From a virus (lineage: Duplodnaviria; Heunggongvirae; Uroviricota; Caudoviricetes): 11,810 nucleotides of DNA. The stretch's first letter is position 1. Every line of letters starts with the position of its first letter. The position numbers and the translations under genes were made by a program. Under the pieces are notes generated by a model. The model did not search any database and was not told where the DNA came from. It worked only from the letters and a program-made list of their open reading frames with translations. Location of the stretch: the IMG/VR virus record IMGVR_UViG_2778261375_000004; one strand, 5' to 3'. Positions 1 to 11,810 of the stretch are shown one piece after another.

Positions 1-528
<528 letters not shown>

Positions 529-704
529 CCAACCTTCACGGAAACCGACTCAGGTATCATTGATTTAAAAAGAATTGATAAAAGGGCCGTTATTATTGCG
601 ACAATTGCGAATAACGTTGCCCTGAACCATAGTTTTTTAAATGTCTGCTTCAGCATCCATTTCCAGCGTGAAATCATTCTGCATTCCCTCATATTGCAGC
701 CGGG

Positions 705-733
705 ATAAATAAATGCCGCCTCTGTGGCGGCAT
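705..733 (-). terminator. Rho-independent terminator of the BCCT transporter gene
   Basis: Perfect 8-bp stem ATGCCGCC (713-720) / GGCGGCAT (726-733) with 5-nt loop, beginning 8 bp after the transporter stop (741-743). On the minus strand it is followed by a U-rich tract (TTATTTAT, plus-strand 705-712). Confidence 0.6.
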
Positions 734-740
734 GTTGCTG

Positions 741-2744
741 TTAACGAACCAGATGCAGGAAGTGCAGGTGTTTTTCGTACTGGTCCAGTATGTCATTAAT
801 CAGCTGTTCCTGATTCCAGCCCATTACATCATAATTTTGGCCGCCCTCTTTGAGATAGACTTCAGCGCGATAATATCGATGTTGTTCACTCTGCTGCTCA
901 TCATTATCCAGCGCAGCGAGCGCGAAGGTCGGTGAGTTATACCCGCGAAGCCTCACTTCATATATATAATTCAGCTCGTTGCCCAAATCGACTTCAAGGC
1001 GAATACGATCCTCGGCGGCGTCACTGATGTGGCTTATCGTTCCCTGCTTGTTAAGTTCCTCCTGAACCAGCGTCATGGCGGGTTGGATAATGTCGTCCAT
1101 AAAACGTTTCACAAGAGAGCGCTTCGGCAAATACGCGATATTGCGTAACCTTCTCTGCCAGGGAATTGGGTTACGTGCAGCCGTAGGAGCAATAGTCGCC
1201 ATGCTAAGGCTTTCACGCTTGGTCAAATCCCGACGCAGGGCTTTTAACAGTCCGTATATGGATATTAATAAGATAACTGAGAAGGGCAATGCACTCGCTA
1301 TCGTTACGGTTTGCAACGCACTCAGCCCCCCTGCGATCAGCAGGGCAATAGCAACAACGCCCATGAGCGATGCCCAGAAAATTCGCTGCCAGACGGGCGT
1401 GTTTGCCACCCCACCTGATGCCAGAGTATCCACAACCATTGCCCCCGAATCAGCAGACGTTACAAAGAAGACGATGACCATCGCCATTGCAATGAATGAC
1501 AGCACGGAAGAGAACGGGAAATGCTCCAGGAAATTAAACAGGGCAAGCGCAACATCCTGCTGAACGGTATTGGCGAGGTCAGTGGCGCCCTGGTTCATGA
1601 TGAGATAGATGGCGCTGTTTCCAAACACCGTCATCCACATGAGCGTAAAGCCGGCGGGAACAAACAACACGCCAGTCACGAACTCACGAATTGTCCTGCC
1701 GCGGGAAACGCGTGCAATGAACATACCTACAAACGGCGACCATGAAAGCCACCATCCCCAGTATAATAATGTCCAGCCCCCCAGCCAGTTGCTCGACTTG
1801 GGTTCATACGCGTAAAGGTTGAACGTTTTACTCACCAGTTCCGACAGATAACCACCCGTATTTTCCACAAATGACTTCAGCAGAAGCACAGTGGGACCCA
1901 GGCACAAGACCAGCGCCAGGAGCAACACCGCCAGGCCCAGATTAAGCTCAGACAGGATGCGTATTCCCTTGTCCAGGCCGGACACCACCGAAATCGTCGC
2001 TAACCCCGTGATGACCACGATCAAAATGACCTGTACCGTTTCATTGATGGGCACGCCGAAAAGATGGTTCAAACCGGCATTCACCTGCAATACACCGTAA
2101 CCCAGTGATGTTGCAACGCCAAAGACAGTGCCTATCACGGCGAAGATATCAACCGCGTGGCCTATAGGCCCGTAAATGCGATCGCCGATAATGGGATAGA
2201 GCGCAGAACGCAGCGTTAAAGGCAGACCGTGACGGTAACTGAAAAAGGCCAGAATCAGCGCCACGATGGCATAAATTGCCCATGCGTGCAGACCCCAGTG
2301 GAAGAACGTCAGGCGCATGGCTTCCTTCGCTGCCGCAACGGTCTCTGGAGTGCCGACAGGTGGCGAAAGATAATGCATCACAGGTTCGGCAACGCCAAAG
2401 AACATCAGGCCGATCCCCATCCCTGCCGAAAAAAGCATCGCGAACCAGGAGTGGTAGCTGAAATCAGGCTGCGCATGGTCTGGGCCCAGCTTTATATCAC
2501 CGTAACGTGAGAGTCCAAGGAACGTGACGCTCAGTAAAATCAGGGCCACAGCAAGTATGTAGAACCAGCTGGCATTCGTGAAGATTTGTTGCTGAAGTAG
2601 TTTAAAATTTTTGTCGGCGACATCCGGGAATACGGCGGCAAAGGCGACAAGAAGGAAAATTAGCAAAGCAGATGTAAAGAATACCGCTTTGTTAATCTGG
2701 CTTGTAGACTTCTTTGGGGTTGTATCATTTTCACTCATAATCAT
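741..2744 (-). CDS. betU: BCCT-family (betaine/carnitine/choline) osmolyte transporter, BetU-like
   Basis: 667-aa polytopic membrane protein with the BCCT signature region WTLLYWGWWLSWSPFVGMFIARVSRGRTIREF and clear collinearity with my recollection of E. coli BetT. Length and context match the BetU paralogue recalled from uropathogenic E. coli; the symbol is tentative. Two adjacent ATG starts (2744, 2738). Confidence 0.85.
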   Translation of the reverse strand: MIMSENDTTPKKSTSQINKAVFFTSALLIFLLVAFAAVFPDVADKNFKLLQQQIFTNASWFYILAVALILLSVTFLGLSRYGDIKLGPDHAQPDFSYHSWFAMLFSAGMGIGLMFFGVAEPVMHYLSPPVGTPETVAAAKEAMRLTFFHWGLHAWAIYAIVALILAFFSYRHGLPLTLRSALYPIIGDRIYGPIGHAVDIFAVIGTVFGVATSLGYGVLQVNAGLNHLFGVPINETVQVILIVVITGLATISVVSGLDKGIRILSELNLGLAVLLLALVLCLGPTVLLLKSFVENTGGYLSELVSKTFNLYAYEPKSSNWLGGWTLLYWGWWLSWSPFVGMFIARVSRGRTIREFVTGVLFVPAGFTLMWMTVFGNSAIYLIMNQGATDLANTVQQDVALALFNFLEHFPFSSVLSFIAMAMVIVFFVTSADSGAMVVDTLASGGVANTPVWQRIFWASLMGVVAIALLIAGGLSALQTVTIASALPFSVILLISIYGLLKALRRDLTKRESLSMATIAPTAARNPIPWQRRLRNIAYLPKRSLVKRFMDDIIQPAMTLVQEELNKQGTISHISDAAEDRIRLEVDLGNELNYIYEVRLRGYNSPTFALAALDNDEQQSEQHRYYRAEVYLKEGGQNYDVMGWNQEQLINDILDQYEKHLHFLHLVR

Positions 2745-3078
2745 TTATTCCATTAATTAAATCCGCACTGGATAGAAGGTACTACCTCTCACAGAGTAGC
2801 AAAGTTCAACTGGCTATGCGGGGTTAATCGGAATGCATGGTGGAATGAGTGCCGATACAAATCATCCTATATTCTAAGGAGTTTTAAGTTACTCAGCCTG
2901 CCAATTACTGGGGCATTTAATTTGTATGATCTGTATCAAAGCTGGGATATAAGTTAAGTGAAGTATATTAGGCACGAATTACCAGCGTCTGCTCTTGGCA
3001 CAAAGCGGACAACCACGCTAGCTCTACCCTGTGCCACAAAATGTCAATTTGCATCTGAACTAATGCACTTTAATCTCG

Positions 3079-3501
3079 TCACTTCAATAAATACCGAACA
3101 TCCCCCTGATAAAACGACAATATGCGCTGCATAACTTCGCTCTTCCGGCACTCGCGACAGATTATGTTTAGGCGACTGTCGTAGCGACGTATTTCTCCGT
3201 CAGGTAATGACCAGATAAGGTCCGGATCAACCACAACCGGTTTCTTCAGCTTTGCCCTCGATAATTTTTTGCGGGCATTTTGCCAGTCTTTACGAGCCTG
3301 TTCAGACGGGAATAACCCGTAGCCAGAATTGTATACATCGCCACTGGCAACCAGCTCTCTGGCCAGAACGCTCATCAGATATCTTGTTGCCCCAGTTTTA
3401 GCTTCCAGTTGTCGTAACGTCTCGCGCCCACTCTGGCGTACGAGTTCAAGAACCTGCCCTTTAATTTTTTCCCGCTCTTCTTGTGTAAAAACTTTTGCCA
3501 C
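3079..3501 (-). CDS. hypothetical prophage protein (140 aa), possible winged-helix DNA-binding segment
   Basis: GTG start at 3499-3501 preceded by a perfect AGGAGG Shine-Dalgarno 4 nt upstream on the minus strand. It is the last gene of the minus-strand replication operon. No family recognised; residues ETLRQLEAKTGATRYLMSVLAREL look HTH-like. Confidence 0.55.
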   Translation of the reverse strand: MAKVFTQEEREKIKGQVLELVRQSGRETLRQLEAKTGATRYLMSVLARELVASGDVYNSGYGLFPSEQARKDWQNARKKLSRAKLKKPVVVDPDLIWSLPDGEIRRYDSRLNIICRECRKSEVMQRILSFYQGDVRYLLK

Positions 3502-3541
3502 AAGCCCTCCTGAAAATTACCTCATGACCAGAAATTAACAC

Positions 3542-4612
3542 TTACCCCCTGAAGCCCGGCGGAATTTCGTTATCCGGTTCAGAAATATGATTCACACAAC
3601 GCTGGTTGTTCGTGCCGCTTACCGGGAGCAACCAGGGGTTCTCAAAATTCCGGTCCGGTCCAAAAAACGTCGTCGCTCGCTGAACAAATTCCGTTCCCGT
3701 TTTCCCGGTAGCCGCCAAGTATCTTGCGTAACGCCTCACGCCATCCAGCATGGCCTCTGGTGGCACCCCCTCGCGTAATCTGGCCTTCCAGGCACTGAAA
3801 GCGGATTTCTTCGGGTTTGCCCCAGCACGCAACGGGTACTCCCGCCAGACCTGTTCGAACACATCCGGATAATCCACTCGTCCCACAGACTGCCCGGTGT
3901 TTTCCGGGACTACCCGATCGGCTTCCCGCTGAATGGCGGAATCGGCTTCAGGCTGCTGCAGTTGGTGTGATTGCTCCGCCCTTGCGGTCATCACCTGCTG
4001 CACAGCGCCCGAATCGGCTTTCAGCGCATACGCTGAATCGGCTTCCGGTGTCGTGCCTGCTGGCTGACCAAGATTGACGGTCTGAACATCCCCTGCCTGG
4101 TTCGTGGCGTTTTTTACGCCATGGACCATAGTGTTTTGATCTTCTTGATCTGTATCTTTATCTGTATCTTTATCTGTCGTGACTCGTCGTGACATGTGCG
4201 TGACATTTCGTGACGCGCCGTGACAATCGCCATTTTGTTCCCGCTTTCTTTCCCTCTCTCGCTGCGCCCTCTTGCGCTCTGCAGGAGATTTTGCGGTTTG
4301 CGAAATATTGCCGTTGTCCTCTTTAAGCACCTGGCGTTTTTCCCATCCAGTGATTAAATCACCATCAAGTACCCGCCCCTGCATCGTCTGCAAAATTGAA
4401 TCAATTACCTCTTCTGTCACGTCGAGCGCACTTGCCAAATCTTCTGTCGTGACATCAATGTGACCTCGCGTGACATTTCGTGACGCGCTCACCAGGAGGT
4501 GGATATACACTGCCATCACTGTTGCAATTGGCTGCCCTGACACCCTGGCAATTGTTCGCCACTTAGGGTCATTTGGCATGTCATGCCATAATCTGAGCCA
4601 GGCGTTAGCCAT
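3542..4612 (-). CDS. Prophage replication initiator with DnaT-like C-terminal domain (YdaU-type)
   Basis: The C-terminus ...FGPDRNFENPWLLPVSGTNNQRCVNHISEPDNEIPPGFRG matches the C-terminal end of E. coli primosomal protein DnaT (...SEPDSQIPPGFRG) as recalled. Start taken as ATG 4610-4612 with AAGAGG 5 nt upstream; the track start GTG 4618 lies inside that RBS. Gene position corresponds to ydaU of Rac. Confidence 0.8.
   Translation of the reverse strand: MANAWLRLWHDMPNDPKWRTIARVSGQPIATVMAVYIHLLVSASRNVTRGHIDVTTEDLASALDVTEEVIDSILQTMQGRVLDGDLITGWEKRQVLKEDNGNISQTAKSPAERKRAQRERERKREQNGDCHGASRNVTHMSRRVTTDKDTDKDTDQEDQNTMVHGVKNATNQAGDVQTVNLGQPAGTTPEADSAYALKADSGAVQQVMTARAEQSHQLQQPEADSAIQREADRVVPENTGQSVGRVDYPDVFEQVWREYPLRAGANPKKSAFSAWKARLREGVPPEAMLDGVRRYARYLAATGKTGTEFVQRATTFFGPDRNFENPWLLPVSGTNNQRCVNHISEPDNEIPPGFRG
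4148..4224. repeat. Iteron-like array I: 12-bp AT-rich tandem repeat followed by five helically phased CGTGAC hexamers
   Basis: ATCTGTATCTTT at 4148-4159 and 4160-4171, partial third copy to 4183. CGTGAC at 4178, 4188, 4199, 4209, 4219 (spacing 10, 11, 10, 10 bp). Lies inside the replication-initiator CDS. Confidence 0.6.
4415..4487. repeat. Iteron-like array II: phased CGTGAC/TGTGAC hexamers plus one inverted copy
   Basis: GTCACG (inverted) at 4415-4420; CGTGAC at 4447, 4468, 4478 and TGTGAC at 4458 (spacing 11, 10, 10 bp). The 21-mer GCGTGACATTTCGTGACGCGC is identical at 4198-4218 and 4467-4487. Confidence 0.55.
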
Positions 4613-4683
4613 ACTCACCTCTTTTGATACCGAATCTTTTTACTCACAAATTGCCGGAAGTGATCCGGTATGAATATTGCGAG

Positions 4684-5109
4684 TCAATGCACAGCCACAA
4701 TATTTCCTGCAGGGCCACCACGATTCATCTGGTTGAAACCAGCGATCGCCACTGCGACAAAATCATCAGCGTCTCTCACCAGTCGTTCCCGCGTCTCCAC
4801 TAGTTCCCGAAAATAGGCTGAGCTATGGCTGCGCATTCGGGCCACCAGCAGAGGTGGCATTGCTTTTTCGATAGCTGGTAACAACGCCTGAATTTTTTCA
4901 ACTGCATCAGGGGTGTCTTTCTCTACCCAGCGGAAAATTTTCTGGGTATTGCGAGCCAGGGCTTCCGGATGGCTGTCGTCATACAGTTCTGGGAACGTCA
5001 TACCCAGTTCAAAATAAGCCCTGGTTATTTCAGCTGCCGGAACTTTTTCACCGTCCGGATGCGCCCAGGCATTCATCGCCATGCGGATGTGTTCATGCTT
5101 GATTTTCAT
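4684..5109 (-). CDS. YdaT-like protein (CII-analogue / formerly annotated toxin family)
   Basis: 141 aa, start ATG 5107-5109 with AGGAG 8 nt upstream. N-terminus MKIKHEHI... and position (between the Cro-like gene and the replication initiator) correspond to ydaT of Rac-type prophages as recalled. Confidence 0.6.
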   Translation of the reverse strand: MKIKHEHIRMAMNAWAHPDGEKVPAAEITRAYFELGMTFPELYDDSHPEALARNTQKIFRWVEKDTPDAVEKIQALLPAIEKAMPPLLVARMRSHSSAYFRELVETRERLVRDADDFVAVAIAGFNQMNRGGPAGNIVAVH

Positions 5110-5374
5110 GAATCAAGCTCCTAGAAAGTGGTTGTGTTAACATTTTGGTATCTTCCAGCTCGGGCCAAATATTCATCCAATCAAAAGGCCTTAGTTGCTG
5201 ACGTGTAACTTCACCATTACTGGCTCGCTCAATAAGGACACATAACGATGCCCCTAACACTTGACCTTTACTCAATGCCTTTCTTAGATAACCGATGCTG
5301 GTACCACACTCGCATGCAAACATACGCTGTTCATCTGACGAAAGAGAATTGAGAAATATTCTTAATTCTTCCAT
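5093..5374 (-). CDS. Cro-like HTH regulator (YdaS family)
   Basis: 93 aa, ATG 5372-5374 with AAGGAG 5 nt upstream. Transcribed divergently from the repressor. The segment ...ERASNGEVTRQQLRPFDW resembles the YdaS/Cro-like family as recalled. Overlaps the next gene by 17 bp. Confidence 0.65.
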   Translation of the reverse strand: MEELRIFLNSLSSDEQRMFACECGTSIGYLRKALSKGQVLGASLCVLIERASNGEVTRQQLRPFDWMNIWPELEDTKMLTQPLSRSLIHENQA

Positions 5375-5399
5375 AGCTACTCCTTAGTAAACACAGCAA

Positions 5400-5468
5400 A
5401 GAATACCCACAGGTAAACAAAAGTCAATACCCACAGGTTGTTTACCTTGCAGTAATCGCATCTATTAT
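5400..5468. promoter_or_regulatory. Immunity switch: divergent promoters with operator pair O1/O2 (TACC-N4-GGTA)
   Basis: O1 TACCCACAGGTA (5404-5415) and O2 TACCCACAGGTT (5428-5439), each within the direct repeat AATACCCACAGGT. Minus-strand promoter for the Cro-like gene: -35 TTGACT (plus-strand 5422-5427), 16-bp spacer, -10 TATTCT (5400-5405). Plus-strand promoter for the repressor: -35 TTTACC (5441-5446), 16-bp spacer, -10 TATTAT (5463-5468). Confidence 0.55.
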
Positions 5469-5474
5469 TTACCT

Positions 5475-5894
5475 ATGGACAAATATGAATTTAGACGACA
5501 GCAACTCATCAAAATTCGTGATGAGAAATGCGATGGTAAAGCGGTTAACGTGGCCAGAAAGATCGGGCGCGAGCCTTCTTATGTATCAAGAATGTTGTAC
5601 CCAGAGGGGAAAAAGGGAAAAAAACGGATCGCTGATGATATGGTGGAGATTATCGAAGAGTCCTTTGGGTTACCCCGGGGATGGATGGATGGTATCGTTT
5701 CATCATCAACGAACACAGCCTCCAGTTATGAAACAAGGGTTCTAACGCCACGACAACGTATTTTTTTAGATCTCTTAGACGAACTGCCAGAAAGTGAAGC
5801 GGATAACTTATTAAAAACTCTTGAAGAGAAAAAACAGTATTACAATATGATCTACGAAGAAATCCGTAAAAAGAAAGCACAAAACGCATCATAG
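5475..5894 (+). CDS. Prophage CI-type repressor (HTH, no peptidase S24 domain; DicA/RacR-like architecture)
   Basis: 139 aa; N-terminal HTH (GKAVNVARKIGREPSYVSRML); C-terminal region resembles the dimerisation region of DicA as recalled. Divergent from the Cro-like gene. No SD upstream of the ATG, consistent with a leaderless mRNA. Confidence 0.75.
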   Translation: MDKYEFRRQQLIKIRDEKCDGKAVNVARKIGREPSYVSRMLYPEGKKGKKRIADDMVEIIEESFGLPRGWMDGIVSSSTNTASSYETRVLTPRQRIFLDLLDELPESEADNLLKTLEEKKQYYNMIYEEIRKKKAQNAS

Positions 5895-5934
5895 CTCACC
5901 AAACAACTAGTCACCAGTTAAGACACCGCAAAAA

Positions 5935-5975
5935 GTTACCCATGGGTATTTACTTTTTAAATACCTATGGGTAAC
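5935..5975 (+). promoter_or_regulatory. Second operator pair O3/O4 (OL-like) at the start of the rightward early operon
   Basis: O3 TACCCATGGGTA (5937-5948, perfect 12-bp palindrome) and O4 TACCTATGGGTA (5962-5973), 25 bp centre to centre. Together they form a 41-bp near-palindrome GTTACCCATGGGTATTTA-N5-TAAATACCTATGGGTAAC. Same TACC-N4-GGTA consensus as O1/O2. Confidence 0.55.
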
Positions 5976-6159
5976 CTTCTTTTCATACCAACCCACCCCG
6001 CCCCACAGAATGCAGGGCAATACTTCGAGTTACCAGGCAGTGGTCAGGGGTTAAGTAGCCAGCCCGAGGCGTAAGAACATGACGGCAGGGTTCAACTTTA
6101 ATAACTATGCAGCAGGTTTTTGTTCCGCTACCCCGGCGTTAAGGGGAAATGAGGTCAGC

Positions 6160-6315
6160 ATGGATACTATCGATCTTGGCAACAGCGAATCTCTGGTATG
6201 TGGCGTGTTCCCCAACCAAGACGGTACGTTCACCGCGATGACGTATACCAAAAGCAAAACGTTTAAAACCGAAAATGGTGCCCGTCGCTGGCTGGAAAGA
6301 AACTCAGGTGAGTGA
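6160..6315 (+). CDS. ydfA: small prophage protein, YdfA-like (51 aa)
   Basis: ATG 6160 with GAGG 5 nt upstream; 51 aa (MDTIDLGNSESLVCGVFPNQDGTF...), first gene after the OL-like operators. Size and position match ydfA of the Qin dicB operon as recalled. The ORF-track start at 6079 gives a 27-aa N-terminal extension with a poorer RBS. Confidence 0.55.
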   Translation: MDTIDLGNSESLVCGVFPNQDGTFTAMTYTKSKTFKTENGARRWLERNSGE

Positions 6316-6316
6316 T

Positions 6317-6445
6317 ATGGATTTCGACACAATCATGGAAAAGGCTTACGAAGAATACTTCGAAGGTCTTGCCGAAGGCGAAGAAGCTCTCAGCTTCAAC
6401 GAATTTAAACAGGCGCTTTCCAGTTCGGCAAAATCTAACGGCTGA
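6317..6445 (+). CDS. ydfB: small acidic prophage protein, YdfB-like (42 aa); not in the ORF track (below size cutoff)
   Basis: ATG 6317 one base after the upstream stop (TGA-T-ATG), with AGGTGA 6 nt upstream. Translation MDFDTIMEKAYEEYFEGLAEGEEALSFNEFKQALSSSAKSNG, stop TGA 6443-6445. Size and position match ydfB. Confidence 0.55.
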   Translation: MDFDTIMEKAYEEYFEGLAEGEEALSFNEFKQALSSSAKSNG

Positions 6446-6474
6446 TAAGCGAAACAGCACCGCGAGGAATCAGT

Positions 6475-6690
6475 ATGCAGAAACGAGAACCCGTCATCAT
6501 CGCGCCAGACTATACCGATGATGAACTTTATGAGTGGATGCACCAGAAAATTAATGCAGCGCAGGATCTGAAATGGGCCAATGAAGCTAGGGCTAAGCAG
6601 GCTGAAAATCTGTCCGCTCTGGAGCAGGATATCACCAATCTGGAAAAAGCAGCAGCATTAAGCATTGCCAGAATGATTACAGGTTGGTAA
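6475..6690 (+). CDS. ydfC: small prophage protein, YdfC-like (71 aa)
   Basis: ATG 6475 with GAGGA 6 nt upstream; protein-like composition (MQKREPVIIAPDYTDDELYEWMHQKINAAQDLKW...). Position and size match ydfC. Confidence 0.6.
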   Translation: MQKREPVIIAPDYTDDELYEWMHQKINAAQDLKWANEARAKQAENLSALEQDITNLEKAAALSIARMITGW

Positions 6691-7002
6691 TAAAGGAGTT
6701 CTCCACGGGTGAGGTGGAGTGCGTGTGCCGGACACGGGTGAGCATCCGGCACTGACAGTTTACTGAAAGGATATTTCCCTGAAAAGTCAGACCATAACGC
6801 GAAAGCGCACGGCGAGGTAGCTGGTTCATAGATAGCCTGTCGTTAAATTTTCGTCGACCGTGCGCTTCCGGTTGTGGCAATCCGCGAAATGGCGCGGCGG
6901 TAAGTATGGCGGGGTTATTCCTTCCCCCGTTGAGGACACCGGGTTGTCAGGTTGACCATACGCTTAAGTGACAACCCCGCTGCAACGCCCTCTGTTATCA
7001 AT

Positions 7003-7060
7003 TTTCTGGTGACGTTTGGCGGTATCAGTTTTACTCCGTGACTGCTCTGCCGCCCTTTTT
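7003..7060 (+). ncRNA. dicF: DicF small regulatory RNA (cell-division/ftsZ-targeting sRNA of lambdoid prophages)
   Basis: TTTCTGGTGACGTTTGGCGGTATCAGTTTTACTCCGTGACTGCTCTGCCGCCCTTTTT matches the DicF sequence as I recall it. It ends in an intrinsic terminator (interrupted GGCGG...CCGCC stem plus T5 at 7056-7060) and sits between ydfC-like and dicB as in Qin. The 5' end is approximate (RNase-processed in vivo). Confidence 0.7.
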
Positions 7061-7229
7061 AAAGTGAATTTTGTGATGTGGTGAATGCGGCTGAGCGCAC
7101 GCGGAACAGTTAAAACCAAAAACAGTGTTATGGGTGGATTCTCTGTATCCGGCGTTAATTGTTAACTGGTTAACGTCACCTGGAGGCACCAGGCACCGCA
7201 TCACAAAATTCATTGTTGAGGACGCGATA

Positions 7230-7418
7230 ATGAAAACGTTATTACCAAACGTTAATACGTCTGAAGGTTGTTTTGAAATTGGTGTCACTATCAGTAACCC
7301 AGTATTTACTGAAGATGCCATTAACAAGAGAAAACAAGAACGGGAGCTATTAAATAAAATATGCATTGTTTCAATGCTGGCTCGTTTACGTCTGATGCCA
7401 AAAAGATGTGCACAATGA
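7230..7418 (+). CDS. dicB: Cell-division inhibitor DicB (62 aa)
   Basis: ATG 7230 with GAGGA 7 nt upstream. Translation MKTLLPNVNTSEGCFEIGVTISNPVFTEDAINKRKQERELLNKICIVSMLARLRLMPKRCAQ matches my recollection of E. coli DicB (62 aa). The ORF-track start at 7125 is an upstream extension without an RBS. Confidence 0.75.
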   Translation: MKTLLPNVNTSEGCFEIGVTISNPVFTEDAINKRKQERELLNKICIVSMLARLRLMPKRCAQ

Positions 7419-7606
7419 ATTCAGCATTTGCGCTTGTTCTGACAGTTTTTCTTGTTTCCGGAGAGCCAGTTGATATTGCAGTCAGTGTTCACAGGACAAT
7501 GCAGGAGTGTATGACTGCAGCAACCGAACAGAAAATTCCCGGTAACTGTTACCCGGTCGATAAAGTTATTCACCAGGATAATATCGAAATCCCGGCAGGT
7601 CTTTAA
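7415..7606 (+). CDS. ydfD: small membrane protein, YdfD-like (63 aa)
   Basis: ATG 7415 overlaps the dicB stop (ATGA, translational coupling). N-terminal hydrophobic helix MNSAFALVLTVFLVSG...; 63 aa, matching the size and position of ydfD (Qin lysis-associated protein). The track start at 7361 is less likely. Confidence 0.6.
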   Translation: MNSAFALVLTVFLVSGEPVDIAVSVHRTMQECMTAATEQKIPGNCYPVDKVIHQDNIEIPAGL

Positions 7607-7699
7607 AACAGTTCCGTAATAAATATCCGGTTTCATTCTTATATGCCAGCAATGGCAGGGATTTATTCATCCTTAAATCTGTCATGAGGTTAAAATAAA

Positions 7700-10171
7700 A
7701 TGAGTAAAGTCTTTATTTGCGCCGCTATTCCTGACGAACTGGCAACAAGGGAAGAAGGCGCTGTGGCTGTAGCCACAGCCATTGAAGCTGGCGACGAACG
7801 CCGTGCTCGAGCAAAATTTCACTGGCAATTCCTGGAACATTATCCGGCTGCTCAGGACTGCGCTTATAAATTTATTGTCTGCGAGGATAAACCTGGCATA
7901 CCCCGCCCAGCCCTCGATTCATGGGATGCTGAATATATGCAGGAAAACCGCTGGGATGAGGATTCTGCTTCTTTTGTTCCGGTTGAGACTGAATCCGATC
8001 CGATGAACGTCACTTTTGACAAGCTGGCCCCTGAAGTACAGAACGCTGTCATGGTTAAGTTCGACACATGTGAAAACATCACCGTTGATATGATTATTAG
8101 CGCGCAGGAATTGTTGCAGGAAGACATGGCAACATTCGACGGACATATCGTTGAAGCGTTGATGAAAATGCCAGAAGTTAACGCCATGTATCCGGAGCTT
8201 AAGTTGCACGCCATTGGGTGGGTTAAGCATAAATGTATTCCTAGTGCTAAATGGCCCGAAATTCAGGCAGAGATGCGCATCTGGAAAAAACGTCGCGAAG
8301 GTGAACGCAAGGAAACCGGAAAATACACGTCTGTTGTTGATCTCGCCCGCGCCAGAACCAATCAACAGTACACTGAAAATTCAACAGGAAAAATCTGCCC
8401 GGTCATTGCTGCCATTCATCGCGAATACAAGCAGACATGGAAAACACTGGATGACGAACTGGCCTACGCTCTCTGGCCTGGTGATGTGGGTGCCGGAAAC
8501 ATTGACGGCAGCATCCATCGCTGGGCAAAAAAAGAAGTTATCGACAACGACCGCGAAGACTGGAAGCGTATCTCGGCATCAATGCGCAAACAGCCTGATG
8601 CCCTTCGCTACGACCGCCAAACTATTTTTGGCCTTGTCCGTGAGCGTCCGATCGACATTCACAAAGATCCCGTAGCACTGAACAAATATATCTGCGAATA
8701 CCTGACGACAAAGGGCGCGTTTGAGAATGAAGAAACAGACCTGGGCACTGTTGATGTTCTCCAGTCATCAGAAACACAAACTGATGCAGTGGAAACTGAG
8801 GTATCTGATATCCCAAAAAATGAAACCGCGCCGGAAGCTGAACCATCTGTAGAGCGTGAGGGGCCGTTCTATTTCCTCTTCGCAGATAAGGACGGAGAAA
8901 AATACGGTCGCGCAAACAAACTTTCTGGTCTGGATAAGGCACTGGCTGCTGGCGCCACTGAAATCACAAAAGAAGAATATTTTGCCCGAAAAAATGGCAC
9001 ATACACGGGCTTACCGCAAAATGTAGATACCGCTGAAGATTCAGAACAACCAGAGCCGATAAAAGTTACCGCTGACGAAGTAAACAAAATTATGCAGGCA
9101 GCCAATATCAGCCAGCCTGACGCCGATAAGTTGCTTGCTGCATCACGTGGTGAATTTGTTGAAGGGATTAGTGACCCGAATGATCCGAAATGGGTTAAGG
9201 GGATCCAGACCCGCGATTCTGTGAACCAGAACCAGCATGAATCGGAACGGAACTACCAAAAAGCGGAACAAAACAGTCCAAATGCGTTACAAAACGAGCC
9301 AGAAACGAAACAGCCTGAACCAGTGGCGCAACAGGAAGTGGAAAAAGCCTGCACCGCTTGCGGTCAGACCGGCGGCGGCAACTGCCCTGATTGTGGCGCG
9401 GTGATGGGCGACGCAACATACCAAGAAACATTCGATGAAGAGTATCAGGTTGAAGTTCAGGAAGATGATCCGGAGGAAATGGAAGGCGCTGAACATCCAC
9501 ACAAGGAGAACACTGGCGGCAATCAGCATCACAATAGCGATAATGAAACTGGCGAGACGGCAGATCACCCAATTAAGGTGAACGGTCATCACGAAATCAC
9601 ATCCACCAGCAGGACGTGTGACCATCTAATGATCGACCTTGAAACCATGGGAAAAAATCCTGATGCCCCGATCATCTCAATAGGTGCAATATTTTTCGAT
9701 CCGCAAACCGGAGATATGGGACCGGAATTTAGTAAGACTATCGATCTGGAAACTGCTGGCGGAGTCATTGATCGGGACACCATTAAATGGTGGCTTAAGC
9801 AATCACGCGAAGCGCAATCTGCCATTATGACCGATGAAATCCCGTTAGATGATGCACTGTTACAATTGCGGGAATTTATCGACGAAAACTCCGGTGAATT
9901 TTTTGTTCATGTCTGGGGAAATGGAGCCAACTTCGACAACACGATTTTGCGCCGTTCATACGAACGGCAGGGGATCCCCTGCCCGTGGCGTTACTACAAC
10001 GATCGCGATGTACGCACAATCGTTGAGCTGGGGAAAGCCATAGACTTCGATGCCAGAACGGCTATTCCATTCGAAGGTGAGCGCCATAATGCACTTGATG
10101 ACGCCCGTTACCAGGCAAAATACGTTTCAGTTATCTGGCAAAAACTGATCCCGAGTCAGGCTGATTCTTAA
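7700..10171 (+). CDS. RecE/ExoVIII-like prophage protein with C4 zinc ribbon and C-terminal DEDDh (DnaQ-like) 3'-5' exonuclease domain
   Basis: 823 aa, ATG 7700 with GAGGT 9 nt upstream. DEDDh motifs read from the translation: Exo I M-I-D-L-E (D646, E648; nt 9629-9643), Exo II HVWGNGANFDN (D746), Exo III H-N-A-L-D-D (H796, D801). Cys4 motif CTAC...CPDC (~nt 9350-9397). Segment KLLAASRGEFVEGISDPNDPKWVKGIQTRD resembles RecE as recalled. Corresponds to an intact version of the IS-disrupted ydfE of Qin. Confidence 0.8.
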   Translation: MSKVFICAAIPDELATREEGAVAVATAIEAGDERRARAKFHWQFLEHYPAAQDCAYKFIVCEDKPGIPRPALDSWDAEYMQENRWDEDSASFVPVETESDPMNVTFDKLAPEVQNAVMVKFDTCENITVDMIISAQELLQEDMATFDGHIVEALMKMPEVNAMYPELKLHAIGWVKHKCIPSAKWPEIQAEMRIWKKRREGERKETGKYTSVVDLARARTNQQYTENSTGKICPVIAAIHREYKQTWKTLDDELAYALWPGDVGAGNIDGSIHRWAKKEVIDNDREDWKRISASMRKQPDALRYDRQTIFGLVRERPIDIHKDPVALNKYICEYLTTKGAFENEETDLGTVDVLQSSETQTDAVETEVSDIPKNETAPEAEPSVEREGPFYFLFADKDGEKYGRANKLSGLDKALAAGATEITKEEYFARKNGTYTGLPQNVDTAEDSEQPEPIKVTADEVNKIMQAANISQPDADKLLAASRGEFVEGISDPNDPKWVKGIQTRDSVNQNQHESERNYQKAEQNSPNALQNEPETKQPEPVAQQEVEKACTACGQTGGGNCPDCGAVMGDATYQETFDEEYQVEVQEDDPEEMEGAEHPHKENTGGNQHHNSDNETGETADHPIKVNGHHEITSTSRTCDHLMIDLETMGKNPDAPIISIGAIFFDPQTGDMGPEFSKTIDLETAGGVIDRDTIKWWLKQSREAQSAIMTDEIPLDDALLQLREFIDENSGEFFVHVWGNGANFDNTILRRSYERQGIPCPWRYYNDRDVRTIVELGKAIDFDARTAIPFEGERHNALDDARYQAKYVSVIWQKLIPSQADS

Positions 10172-10182
10172 TGTTCAACTGT

Positions 10183-10214
10183 CGCCGGTTGTGACTGGTA
10201 TTCTGCAACCGGCG
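10183..10214 (+). other. Stable hairpin between the exonuclease gene and the excisionase-position gene
   Basis: 9-bp perfect stem CGCCGGTTG (10183-10191) / CAACCGGCG (10206-10214) with a 14-nt loop; not followed by a T-run, so it is not a canonical intrinsic terminator. Confidence 0.35.
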
Positions 10215-10243
10215 CTCGTCTAATGTAAGAGATAAAGAAATCG

Positions 10244-10495
10244 ATGAGCGAAGTAATCATGATTGTCTCTCCCGGCAAATGGGTATCCGAAGAGCAGTTA
10301 ATTGCGCTGAAAGGAATAAAAAAAGGTACGTTAAAAAAGGCCCGGGAAAAATCGTTTATGGAAGGAAGGGAATATAAGCATGTCGCTCATGACGGTATGC
10401 CATGGGATAACAGCCCATGCTTTTACAACCTGGAAGAAATTGATCGCTGGATTGAGCGCCAGGCATCAGCAAGACCAAGACGTCATCTTACTTGA
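10244..10495 (+). CDS. small protein in excisionase position (putative Xis / DNA-binding recombination directionality factor)
   Basis: 83 aa, directly upstream of and co-oriented with the integrase (20-35 bp gap), basic and small. Assignment is by position and size only; no motif recognised with certainty. Confidence 0.45.
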   Translation: MSEVIMIVSPGKWVSEEQLIALKGIKKGTLKKAREKSFMEGREYKHVAHDGMPWDNSPCFYNLEEIDRWIERQASARPRRHLT

Positions 10496-10529
10496 CTAAA
10501 AGCCACACTAACTAATGAGAGAAGTTGAA

Positions 10530-11810
10530 ATGAAATATCCGACAGGCGTGGAAAACCATGGAGGGAAATTACGTATCTGGTTTGTTTATAAAGGCGTAAG
10601 AGTCAGGGAAAACCTGGGGGTTCCTGACACAGCAAAAAACAGGCGCGTTGCAGGCGAGCTACGCGCCTCTGTTTGTTACGCAATAAAAACTGGTGTTTTC
10701 GACTATGCAAAACAGTTTCCCTCCTCACGCAATCTGGAAAAATTTGGTGAGACCCGACAAGATTTAACCATAAAAGAACTGGCTGAAAAATTTCTGGCAC
10801 TGAAAGAAACTGAAGTCGCAAAAACATCACTCAACACATACCGTGCCGTCATCAAAAATATCCTGAGCATAATCGGTGAAAAAAATCTTGCCTCATCGAT
10901 TAATAAAGAAAAATTACTGGAGGTTCGTAAAGAGCTACTGACTGGATACCAGATCCCCAAAAGTAACTATATTGTTACACAACCAGGAAGATCGGCTGTA
11001 ACTGTAAATAATTACATGACAAATCTTAACGCCGTGTTCCAGTTTGGTGTTGATAACGGTTACCTGGCAGATAACCCGTTTAAGGGGATCTCGCCATTAA
11101 AGGAATCAAGAACCATTCCGGATCCTCTTTCGCGGGAGGAATTCATCCGTCTTATCGATGCGTGCAGAAATCAGCAAGCCAAAAATTTATGGTGTGTTTC
11201 TGTTTATACTGGCGTTCGCCCTGGTGAGCTGTGTGCACTTGGATGGGAGGACATAGATCTGAAAAATGGAACAATGATGATCAGGAGAAATTTAGCAAAA
11301 GACCGTTTCACGGTACCAAAAACACAGGCGGGAACCAATCGGGTCATTCATCTTATTAAGCCAGCAATCGACGCTCTCCGGAGTCAGATGACATTAACGA
11401 GACTGAGCAAAGAGCATATCATTGATGTTCACCTCAGAGAGTATGGCAGAACAGAAAAACATAAATGCACCTTTGTTTTTCAACCTGAAGTGTCAGCGAG
11501 AGTAAAAAATTATGGTGACCATTTTACCGTTGACTCAATAAGGCAGATGTGGGACGCAGCGATAAAACGTGCCGGACTCCGCCATCGAAAATCATATCAG
11601 TCGAGACATACTTATGCCTGCTGGTCGCTGACAGCTGGTGCTAACCCGGCATTTATAGCAAACCAGATGGGCCATGCAGATGCGCAAATGGTATTTCAGG
11701 TATACGGAAAATGGATGTCTGAAAACAATAATGCACAGGTAGCTTTGTTAAATACACAGTTAAGCGAGTTTGCCCCAACCATGCCCCATAACGAAGCAAT
11801 GAAAAATTAA
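10530..11810 (+). CDS. int: Tyrosine site-specific integrase (phage integrase family)
   Basis: Catalytic signature in the C-terminal domain: box I Arg (TGVRPGEL), box II ...SRHTYACWSLTAGANPAFIANQMGHADAQMVFQVYGKWM with the H-x-x-R and nucleophile Tyr pattern. Start taken as ATG 10530 (purine-rich GAGAAG 5-6 nt upstream); the ORF-track start 10515 is an alternative. Stop TAA at 11808-11810, the window end. Confidence 0.9.
   Translation: MKYPTGVENHGGKLRIWFVYKGVRVRENLGVPDTAKNRRVAGELRASVCYAIKTGVFDYAKQFPSSRNLEKFGETRQDLTIKELAEKFLALKETEVAKTSLNTYRAVIKNILSIIGEKNLASSINKEKLLEVRKELLTGYQIPKSNYIVTQPGRSAVTVNNYMTNLNAVFQFGVDNGYLADNPFKGISPLKESRTIPDPLSREEFIRLIDACRNQQAKNLWCVSVYTGVRPGELCALGWEDIDLKNGTMMIRRNLAKDRFTVPKTQAGTNRVIHLIKPAIDALRSQMTLTRLSKEHIIDVHLREYGRTEKHKCTFVFQPEVSARVKNYGDHFTVDSIRQMWDAAIKRAGLRHRKSYQSRHTYACWSLTAGANPAFIANQMGHADAQMVFQVYGKWMSENNNAQVALLNTQLSEFAPTMPHNEAMKN

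Follow-up and report, generated by a model that had tools for sequence, protein, structure and literature searches.

How a complete osmoprotectant transporter gene came to lie beside the replication genes of a lambdoid prophage is the question raised by the stretch of viral DNA analysed here (IMG/VR record IMGVR_UViG_2778261375_000004; 11,810 nucleotides (nt), hereafter the window). As judged from its open reading frames (ORFs) and Pfam domains, the window is a single arm of an Escherichia coli lambdoid prophage. The gene in question, at positions 741-2744 on the minus strand, encodes a transporter of the BCCT family, and we identify it with high but not complete confidence as betU, the already known accessory glycine betaine importer gene of E. 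coli. The initial annotation had described it as prophage cargo comparable to trkG in the Rac prophage. In the explanation favoured here betU is the passenger of a lambdoid, Qin-like prophage that has inserted into ydfJ next to rspB, and we give this explanation as a whole a probability of roughly 85%.

Prophage context of betU

The surroundings of betU were compared with a set of 5426 complete E. coli genomes. In a megablast search of this set, window 526-11810 was found at 100% identity in many strains, where it adjoins rspB. The rspB-side site in these strains is the ydfJ integration site, which is used by Qin in K-12. A relative free of the insertion sequence (IS) seen in the window, CP029242 (loci L001 and L094; window coordinates equal L001 coordinates minus 14475), carries here a lambda-like prophage of ~48.8 kb with a complete virion module. 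Starting from rspB, its order is integrase, exonuclease, dicB, immunity genes, replication genes and DUF977, then the BCCT gene, DUF2254, LysR, ChaC-like and MFS genes. These are followed by hokD, DUF968, RusA, the Q antiterminator, tRNAs and lysis genes, and finally by terminase, head and tail genes that make up a full lambda-like module, tail fibre genes and a truncated ydfJ. In such IS-free relatives phage backbone therefore flanks betU on both sides, as expected of prophage cargo. The initial annotation had also supposed that virion or lysis genes would normally follow at this point. This did not hold, since in the intact relatives hokD, DUF968, RusA and Q come first and the lysis and virion genes lie further on.

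Chromosomes with an empty site were readily found. A flank-joining probe showed rspB and intact ydfJ to be contiguous over 1343 bp in 2007 of the 5426 genomes, leaving no room for a 2-kb gene, and betU is therefore not core at the rspB-ydfJ locus. A transporter at the same locus in strains lacking the prophage, the finding that would have spoken for a core gene, was not seen in these 2007 genomes. In K-12, Qin occupies the ydfJ site without any BCCT gene. Prophage cargo is defined by enclosure in phage backbone and by absence where the prophage is missing, and betU shows both at this locus.

The junction between betU and DUF977 was present in 311 genomes (5.7%; probe coverage at least 80%). 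The cargo together with the replication module was also found in a Rac-type prophage carrying recE, recT, racC, kilR and sieB. In a sister prophage (L008) the backbone is 96-97% identical on both sides, and another 2.2-kb cargo occupies the slot.

The betU-DUF2254 cassette and its slot

The edges of the cargo were located by homology breakpoints. The backbone shared with the sister prophage L008 begins at window 2987, and homology to plasmid copies of betU ends at window 3011; between these positions lies a 24-nt imperfect palindrome (Table 1). Its general form is GTCYGCT-N10-AGCRGAC; the loop is either TTGAGCGAGG-like or NNTGGCACAA. The plasmid copies, which are 99.7-99.8% identical in the upstream region of betU as elsewhere, match L001 from 13778/13787 to 17486 (window 3011). 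As this homology runs from palindrome to palindrome, betU and DUF2254 together make up a separate cassette of 3.7 kb with a 24-nt palindrome at either end. Within it, DUF2254 (full-length protein, PF10011, E = 1.5e-92) is the constant partner of betU. A second cassette was noticed at L001 10963-13744, comprising an MFS gene (similar to Cmx/CmrA, with a score under the model cut-off), a gene for a ChaC-like gamma-glutamylcyclotransferase and a LysR gene. It is absent from the window because of the insertion sequence IS100 at the left end. We considered whether these units are integron gene cassettes and rejected the idea: the palindromes lack attC core sites (GTTRRRY-type), the annotation of the locus shows no integron integrase, and the cassette genes face both ways.

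The palindrome is widespread in related prophages. By an exact-pattern scan it was found on at least 120 IMG/VR viral contigs (loci L095-L214). Among the matches listed, the nearest known backbone gene past the palindrome was DUF977 in 61 of 120 and relB in 18 of 120, and the 56 segments lying between palindromes belonged to 33 unrelated types. betU was present on nine of the 120 listed contigs, with a characteristic palindrome spacing of 3673 bp. Elsewhere the slot holds genes for SMODS, a Pycsar/CAP12-type TIR effector, DarT with a macro-domain protein, RelA/SpoT, an adenylate/guanylate cyclase with AGS-C sensor, an FRG domain protein and a HAD hydrolase. In K-12 Qin, degenerate palindromes flank flxA-ydfV, and one adjoins relB. 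The slot between DUF977 and hokD/nin/Q is hypervariable and, given its 33 unrelated segment types with accessory and anti-phage genes, a typical cargo and defence hotspot of which betU is one occupant.

The palindromes have no T-tract, and covariation in their stems is too noisy to separate structure from sequence conservation. A literature search on the sequence found no description of the 24-nt palindrome. Recombination points, RNA hairpins and merely conserved linkers are all candidates for its nature. A more ambitious proposal, which we regard as rather unlikely, is that the palindromes are dedicated exchange points at which cargo would be swapped, stacked or inverted and through which betU would have left a Qin-like prophage for resistance plasmids. 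On this speculative scheme the modules exchanged would include betU-DUF2254, MFS-ChaC-LysR, relBE, flxA-ydfV and many anti-phage defence genes. The plasmids so reached, with the same reservation, might be resistance plasmids of E. coli, Shigella, Klebsiella and Salmonella Typhi.

Alleles, frequency and selection

betU was detected in 1959 of the 5426 genomes (36%), the other 64% being without the gene, and it occurs as two main alleles. The allele at least 99% identical to the window accounts for 407 records, in prophages and on plasmids. The other allele, with ~93% DNA identity to the window, accounts for 1554 records; its copy in BL21 lies between IS911 and IS600 near the fec operon. For window 741-2738 against the BL21-type allele (L004 9004-10998), synonymous divergence (dS) was 0.32 and nonsynonymous divergence (dN) 0.009, giving dN/dS = 0.027. 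At the protein level the two alleles are 98% identical and differ in 13 of 665 residues, against 93% identity of the DNA. A ratio as low as this at dS 0.32 argues for strong purifying selection on both alleles. The divergence, which affects a third of synonymous sites, is far above that of typical E. coli core genes. For this reason the two alleles suggest separate acquisitions from different donors. Horizontal acquisition, which the initial annotation had proposed, is also supported by the two alleles being 7% apart in DNA, by IS-flanked chromosomal copies and by ~1500 plasmid copies.

Serratia, Cedecea, Providencia, Xenorhabdus and Morganella have chromosomal BetU orthologues (71-94% identity), which stand there without DUF2254. 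Across 80 other species the DUF2254, LysR, ChaC and MFS neighbours were not found beside BetU orthologues, the sole such neighbours being DUF2254 remnants in Citrobacter and Raoultella. In Citrobacter braakii ATCC 51113 (L011 3683-6406, 8001-9995) the encoded BetU is 98% identical, DUF2254 is deleted and a single palindrome is present. This betU directly adjoins phage tail genes (GpJ-like, DUF1833) at the end of a different prophage, which borders on chromosomal GGDEF and MlrA genes.

Identity and substrate of the transporter

The ORF is intact and encodes 667 amino acids (aa) from its first ATG, while RefSeq places the start at 2738, two codons later (665 aa). It matches the Pfam BCCT family PF02028 over profile positions 1-485 of 485 (E = 7e-199; 661.7 bits, cut-off 27) and TIGR00842 with a score of 542.7 (cut-off 407.55). 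Hence, the transporter is complete, as the initial annotation had stated. A Trp-rich transmembrane segment 8 (TM8) and a Gly-rich stretch in TM3 are defining for the BCCT family. Both, WTLLYWGWWLSWSPFVGMFIARVSRGRTIREF in TM8 and SAGMGIGLMFFG in TM3, are present in the translation and align with BetT and BetP. The product has a C-terminal cytoplasmic extension of ~160 aa, and exactly this protein, in its RefSeq form, was found on at least 1000 public contigs.

A terminator-like hairpin (713-733) directly 3' of betU is consistent with the terminator of its own that was claimed initially. The hairpin lies 7 nt beyond the stop codon and folds as RNA with -17.7 kcal/mol in a 61-nt context; 6 of the 8 bp in its stem are G-C, and TTATTTAT comes after the stem. 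Termination here may be partial, because DUF2254, which is co-directional with betU, starts (677) only 36 nt beyond the hairpin. On the other side, 334 bp separate betU from the stop codon of DUF977 (3079), in agreement with the ~330-bp upstream region next to the replication module noted initially. No terminator was predicted between DUF977 and betU. Base composition was uninformative as a sign of foreign origin: betU has 51% G+C and 59% G+C at third codon positions (GC3), and the phage genes have 41-54% G+C.

Three BCCT members are present in K-12: BetT, CaiT and YeaV. The betU product is only 42% identical to K-12 BetT (b0314), aligned over the full length including the C-terminal domain, which in BetT mediates osmotic activation. 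Homology to BetP is clear (E = 2e-97). In TM3 the Gly stretch of the betU product, AGMGIGLMF, is that of BetP, whereas the E. coli BetT structure sequence reads AGIGIDLMF. Perez and co-workers reportedly found in 2011 that the exchange G153D shifts BetP towards choline specificity and H+ coupling. betU itself is said to have been cloned from the pyelonephritis isolate HU734 by Ly and co-workers in 2004 (Ly, Henderson, Lu, Culham and Wood), who reportedly detected it in 32-34% of isolates, flanked by insertion sequences. Their title pairs betU with trkG, and they reportedly concluded that neither gene belongs to the core genome.

The specific 14-mer of primer IS1056-03, used by Holt and co-workers for the transposon Tn6062, has a match at the 3' end of DUF2254 in two loci, L005 and L003 (the latter an S. 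Typhi IncY plasmid), with an implied amplicon of ~3.4 kb. Tn6062 comprises betU (SPAP0106, IncHI1 plasmids) and a second putative transporter gene; its amplicon is 3405 bp, and S. Typhi carrying it grows at 0.8 M NaCl (Holt et al. 2011, PMC3139670). BetT and BetU have been named as BCCT osmolyte importers of E. coli, BetT being choline-specific and BetU betaine-specific (PMC4411257), and BetU is present only in some strains (PMC4411257, PMC13300293). Incidence, the IS-flanked allele, the Tn6062 architecture and the 14-mer primer match all fit, and on these indirect grounds the ORF is identified as betU. Its sequence is consistent with a product that takes up glycine betaine and proline betaine.

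Several observations weigh against our explanation. No deposited phage genome carries a close copy of betU, the best match in the phage collection being 54% identical, and ~80% of betU-positive E. coli have the other allele, outside prophages. A simple consensus scan detected no consensus sigma-70 promoter in the 334-bp gap upstream of betU. The second Holt primer, IS1056-04, had no exact match in any fetched allele, and no match in the window or L003 with up to 3 mismatches. The name BetU is absent from the protein collections, where every source has BetT or BCCT. Finally, the protein scores 593 against the glycine-betaine BCCT equivalog, which is below the cut-off of 650 bits, and 752 against the NCBIfam BetT subfamily NF007399 (cut-off 695 bits), a subfamily model and not an equivalog.

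These scores and names favour what the RefSeq/PGAP name conveys, namely that the ORF encodes a second BetT, a choline:H+ symporter feeding betaine synthesis, and the whole-length alignment with K-12 BetT, C-terminal domain included, points the same way. However, an identity of 42% is low for a second BetT, and TM3 has GMGIG as in the betaine transporter BetP instead of GIGID. The neighbours are DUF2254 and phage genes, with no adjacent betIBA genes. BetU has moreover been reported as betaine-specific (PMC4411257), and the two-gene Tn6062 clone conferred osmotolerance in lysogeny broth (PMC3139670). We consider a second BetT improbable. The RefSeq name arises because the protein passes the subfamily-level NCBIfam model. 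In view of the BetP-like TM3 motif and the BetU literature, 'choline BCCT transporter BetT' is probably misleading and likely a systematic misannotation.

Insertion sequences and plasmid copies

The left end of the window (1-525) is 99% identical to an IS100 copy in L002. The IS100 end at 525/526 cuts DUF2254 after ~50 codons and leaves betU, its upstream region and the hairpin intact. This exact junction was absent from all 5426 complete E. coli genomes, and IS-free relatives have uninterrupted sequence at 525/526. IS100 in the window is a secondary, strain-specific insertion. The initial annotation had placed the transporter between phage DNA and an IS21-family element; such an element is indeed present, but it does not mark the border of the cargo. 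Independent IS100 insertions were seen in different strains at no fewer than 4 positions in or near the 3.7-kb cassette; two lie in DUF2254, one lies within betU and one upstream of it (Table 1). This clustering may reflect an insertion hotspot or selection. The composite structure of Tn6062 was not found, as neither the window nor L001 contains IS1 and a single IS100 end interrupts DUF2254. An IS1-adjacent copy of betU is present on Klebsiella plasmids (1260 records), which carry a different betU allele truncated by IS1.

Plasmid copies of the window allele retain phage sequence. Past the cassette, L003 and L093, an E. coli IncFIB plasmid, continue with 504 bp of 99.6% identity to K-12 Qin (relB and a portion of relE). 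The DNA before the cassette is 88% identical to Qin 6962-7133 (between flxA and ydfW), palindrome included. Since Qin DNA lies on both flanks, the plasmid copy appears to have been cut from the slot of a Qin-like prophage, apparently next to IS26.

These data bear on the possibility that the transporter is IS- or transposon-borne and landed in the prophage by chance, so that it would be no meaningful phage cargo. Consistent with this, betU is IS-flanked elsewhere (IS911 and IS600 in BL21, IS1 on Klebsiella plasmids, IS26 on IncY plasmids, and Tn6062; PMC3139670), and IS100 lies beside betU in the window and at other positions in three further genomes. The IS100 positions vary, however, and most carriers are without it. 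The junctions of the prophage cassette are 24-nt palindromes and not IS ends, the same palindromes bound unrelated cargo elsewhere, and the Qin DNA on both flanks of the plasmid copies indicates movement from phage to plasmid. An IS-borne origin is therefore very improbable. That betU is a core chromosomal gene before which the prophage ends, as the left side of the window with only an IS100 end and nothing phage-like might suggest, can be dismissed in view of the 2007 empty rspB-ydfJ sites, the phage backbone that goes on past the cargo in IS-free relatives, the 64% of genomes without the gene and K-12 Qin, which occupies the same site without it.

Further features of the window

Beyond the replication module, the window continues into immunity genes and the integration end of the prophage (Table 1). 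The genes at 3542-5374 on the minus strand form the early rightward operon, which is co-directional with betU. On the plus strand, 7700-11810 is the left arm of the Qin-like prophage in ydfJ beside rspB, according to the RefSeq annotation and the flanks. ydfA, ydfB and ydfC are also present, between the exonuclease and repressor regions. The small RNA (sRNA) DicF lies upstream of dicB (7230-7418) and ydfD, the same arrangement as in K-12 Qin.

Table 1. Positions of betU, its neighbours and related sites. Locations refer to the window unless a locus is named. L001, CP029242; L003, S. Typhi IncY plasmid; L008, sister prophage; L010, K-12 Qin; L093, E. coli IncFIB plasmid.
Feature	Location	Strand	Basis or remark
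Terminal part of IS100 (IS21 family), including 3' part of istB (16-459)	1-525	+	Pfam IstB_IS21, E = 1.7e-66
DUF2254 membrane-protein gene, 5' remnant of ~50 codons	526-677	-	Window 526 = L001 15001, within CDS L001 13875-15152
Terminator-like hairpin ATGCCGCC-ACAGA-GGCGGCAT, then TTATTTAT	713-733	-	Consensus scan, RNA fold
betU, BCCT-family betaine transporter (probable)	741-2744	-	667 aa from first ATG; RefSeq 665 aa
betU upstream region, moves with cassette; presumed promoter location	2745-2986	-	41% G+C over 2745-3078
24-nt imperfect palindrome GTCTGCTCTTGGCACAAAGCGGAC, edge of betU cassette and prophage cargo slot	2987-3010		Homology breakpoints
DUF977 gene, last of prophage replication module	3079-3501	-	Pfam PF06163, E = 2e-28
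Replisome-organizer gene	3542-4618	-	Pfam, RefSeq annotation of identical DNA
YdaT-family gene	4684-5109	-	Pfam, RefSeq annotation of identical DNA
Cro/YdaS-like gene	5093-5374	-	Pfam, RefSeq annotation of identical DNA
Putative prophage repressor, weakly DicA-like	5475-5894	+	NCBIfam DicA subfamily, E = 2.8e-5, under cut-off; divergent from cro-like gene
DicF sRNA, full length	7004-7055	+	Rfam RF00039, 76.7 bits
Exonuclease, 823 aa	7700-10171	+	Pfam
Excisionase	10244-10495	+	Pfam
Tyrosine integrase	10515-11810	+	Pfam
Palindrome, left slot edge, just past hokD	L001 10723		
Palindrome between LysR and DUF2254	L001 13789		
Palindrome, right slot edge	L001 17462		= window 2987-3010
Palindromes, both slot edges of sister prophage	L008 4785, 7001		
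Palindromes, other sites	L003 1830, 2789, 6462; L010 ~5981, ~6975		
IS100 insertion sites	525/526; L002 8392-10343; L007 5765-7566; NZ_AP026961.1 (H201)		
Qin-like flanks on plasmids	L003 1693-1864 and 6487-6990; L093 7674-8987		

Discussion

According to the explanation favoured here, the betU product would be an accessory BCCT secondary transporter, importing glycine betaine as well as proline betaine and thereby aiding growth at high osmolarity. It would be betaine-specific with BetP-like coupling rather than a choline:H+ symporter. A lysogen would express betU from its own promoter, presumably located in the 266 bp carried along with it. On prophage induction, transcription from the early rightward operon may read through into betU, because the orientation is the same and the interval from DUF977 to betU has no predicted terminator. 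Through lysogeny, betU could be spread by a carrier prophage that is intact, and the near-identical plasmid copies would have been captured from such a prophage. In the window, DUF2254 was lost to the later insertion of IS100.

The comparison with trkG proposed initially is apt in part. Like betU, trkG of K-12 Rac is a non-core osmoregulatory transporter gene located within a lambdoid prophage on the distal side of the replication genes. trkG differs in belonging to the Trk K+ uptake family and in following ydaW and the rzpR/rzoR lysis remnants, so that the two genes do not occupy a homologous slot. The K-12 Rac locus (L009) contains no 24-nt palindromes. We also considered whether ydaW is a DUF977 homologue, which would place trkG in the betU slot; the two show no similarity, and ydaW belongs to DUF1627.

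The gene shares with the BetU of the 2004 report and with betU of Tn6062 the BCCT family, the length of ~665 aa, the presence in about a third of E. coli and the pairing with DUF2254, those copies being IS-flanked elsewhere. From the commoner BL21-type allele it differs by the values given above and by its location in a prophage slot instead of between insertion sequences. K-12 BetT has the same BCCT fold and a long C-terminal cytoplasmic domain; unlike betU, it is core, linked to betIBA and carries GIGID. BetP of Corynebacterium glutamicum, a Na+/glycine betaine symporter (PDB 2WIT, 4AIN), is identical to the betU product in the TM3 motif AGMGIGLMF and lacks the ~160-aa C-terminal domain of the BetT/BetU type. 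With prophage morons and defence hotspots betU has in common that it is a phage-unrelated accessory gene with its own terminator-like hairpin in a variable slot. Compared with known hotspots, the betU slot is distinguished by a conserved 24-nt palindrome that bounds both the slot and its single cassettes.

The gene betU, its function, its accessory status and its pairing with trkG are already known, and later papers treat betU as accessory. A literature search found no paper on betU or a BCCT gene in a prophage context. The present analysis adds the allele found in prophages and how often it occurs, the layout of the cassette and its hotspot, a prophage source for one set of plasmid copies and the likely misannotation. 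The gain is contextual rather than conceptual, and the palindromes are the sole element with real potential for novelty.

BetU is one of few osmoprotectant importers that vary between E. coli strains, and a link has been drawn between betU of Tn6062 and the salt tolerance of the multidrug-resistant typhoid plasmid that dominates worldwide. In ~6% of the complete E. coli genomes, one allele of the gene is carried by a lambda-like prophage that appears complete. Taken together, the prophage allele and the Qin DNA on the plasmid flanks point to a concrete route by which an osmoadaptation trait may spread, from a phage slot through capture by IS26 to plasmids.

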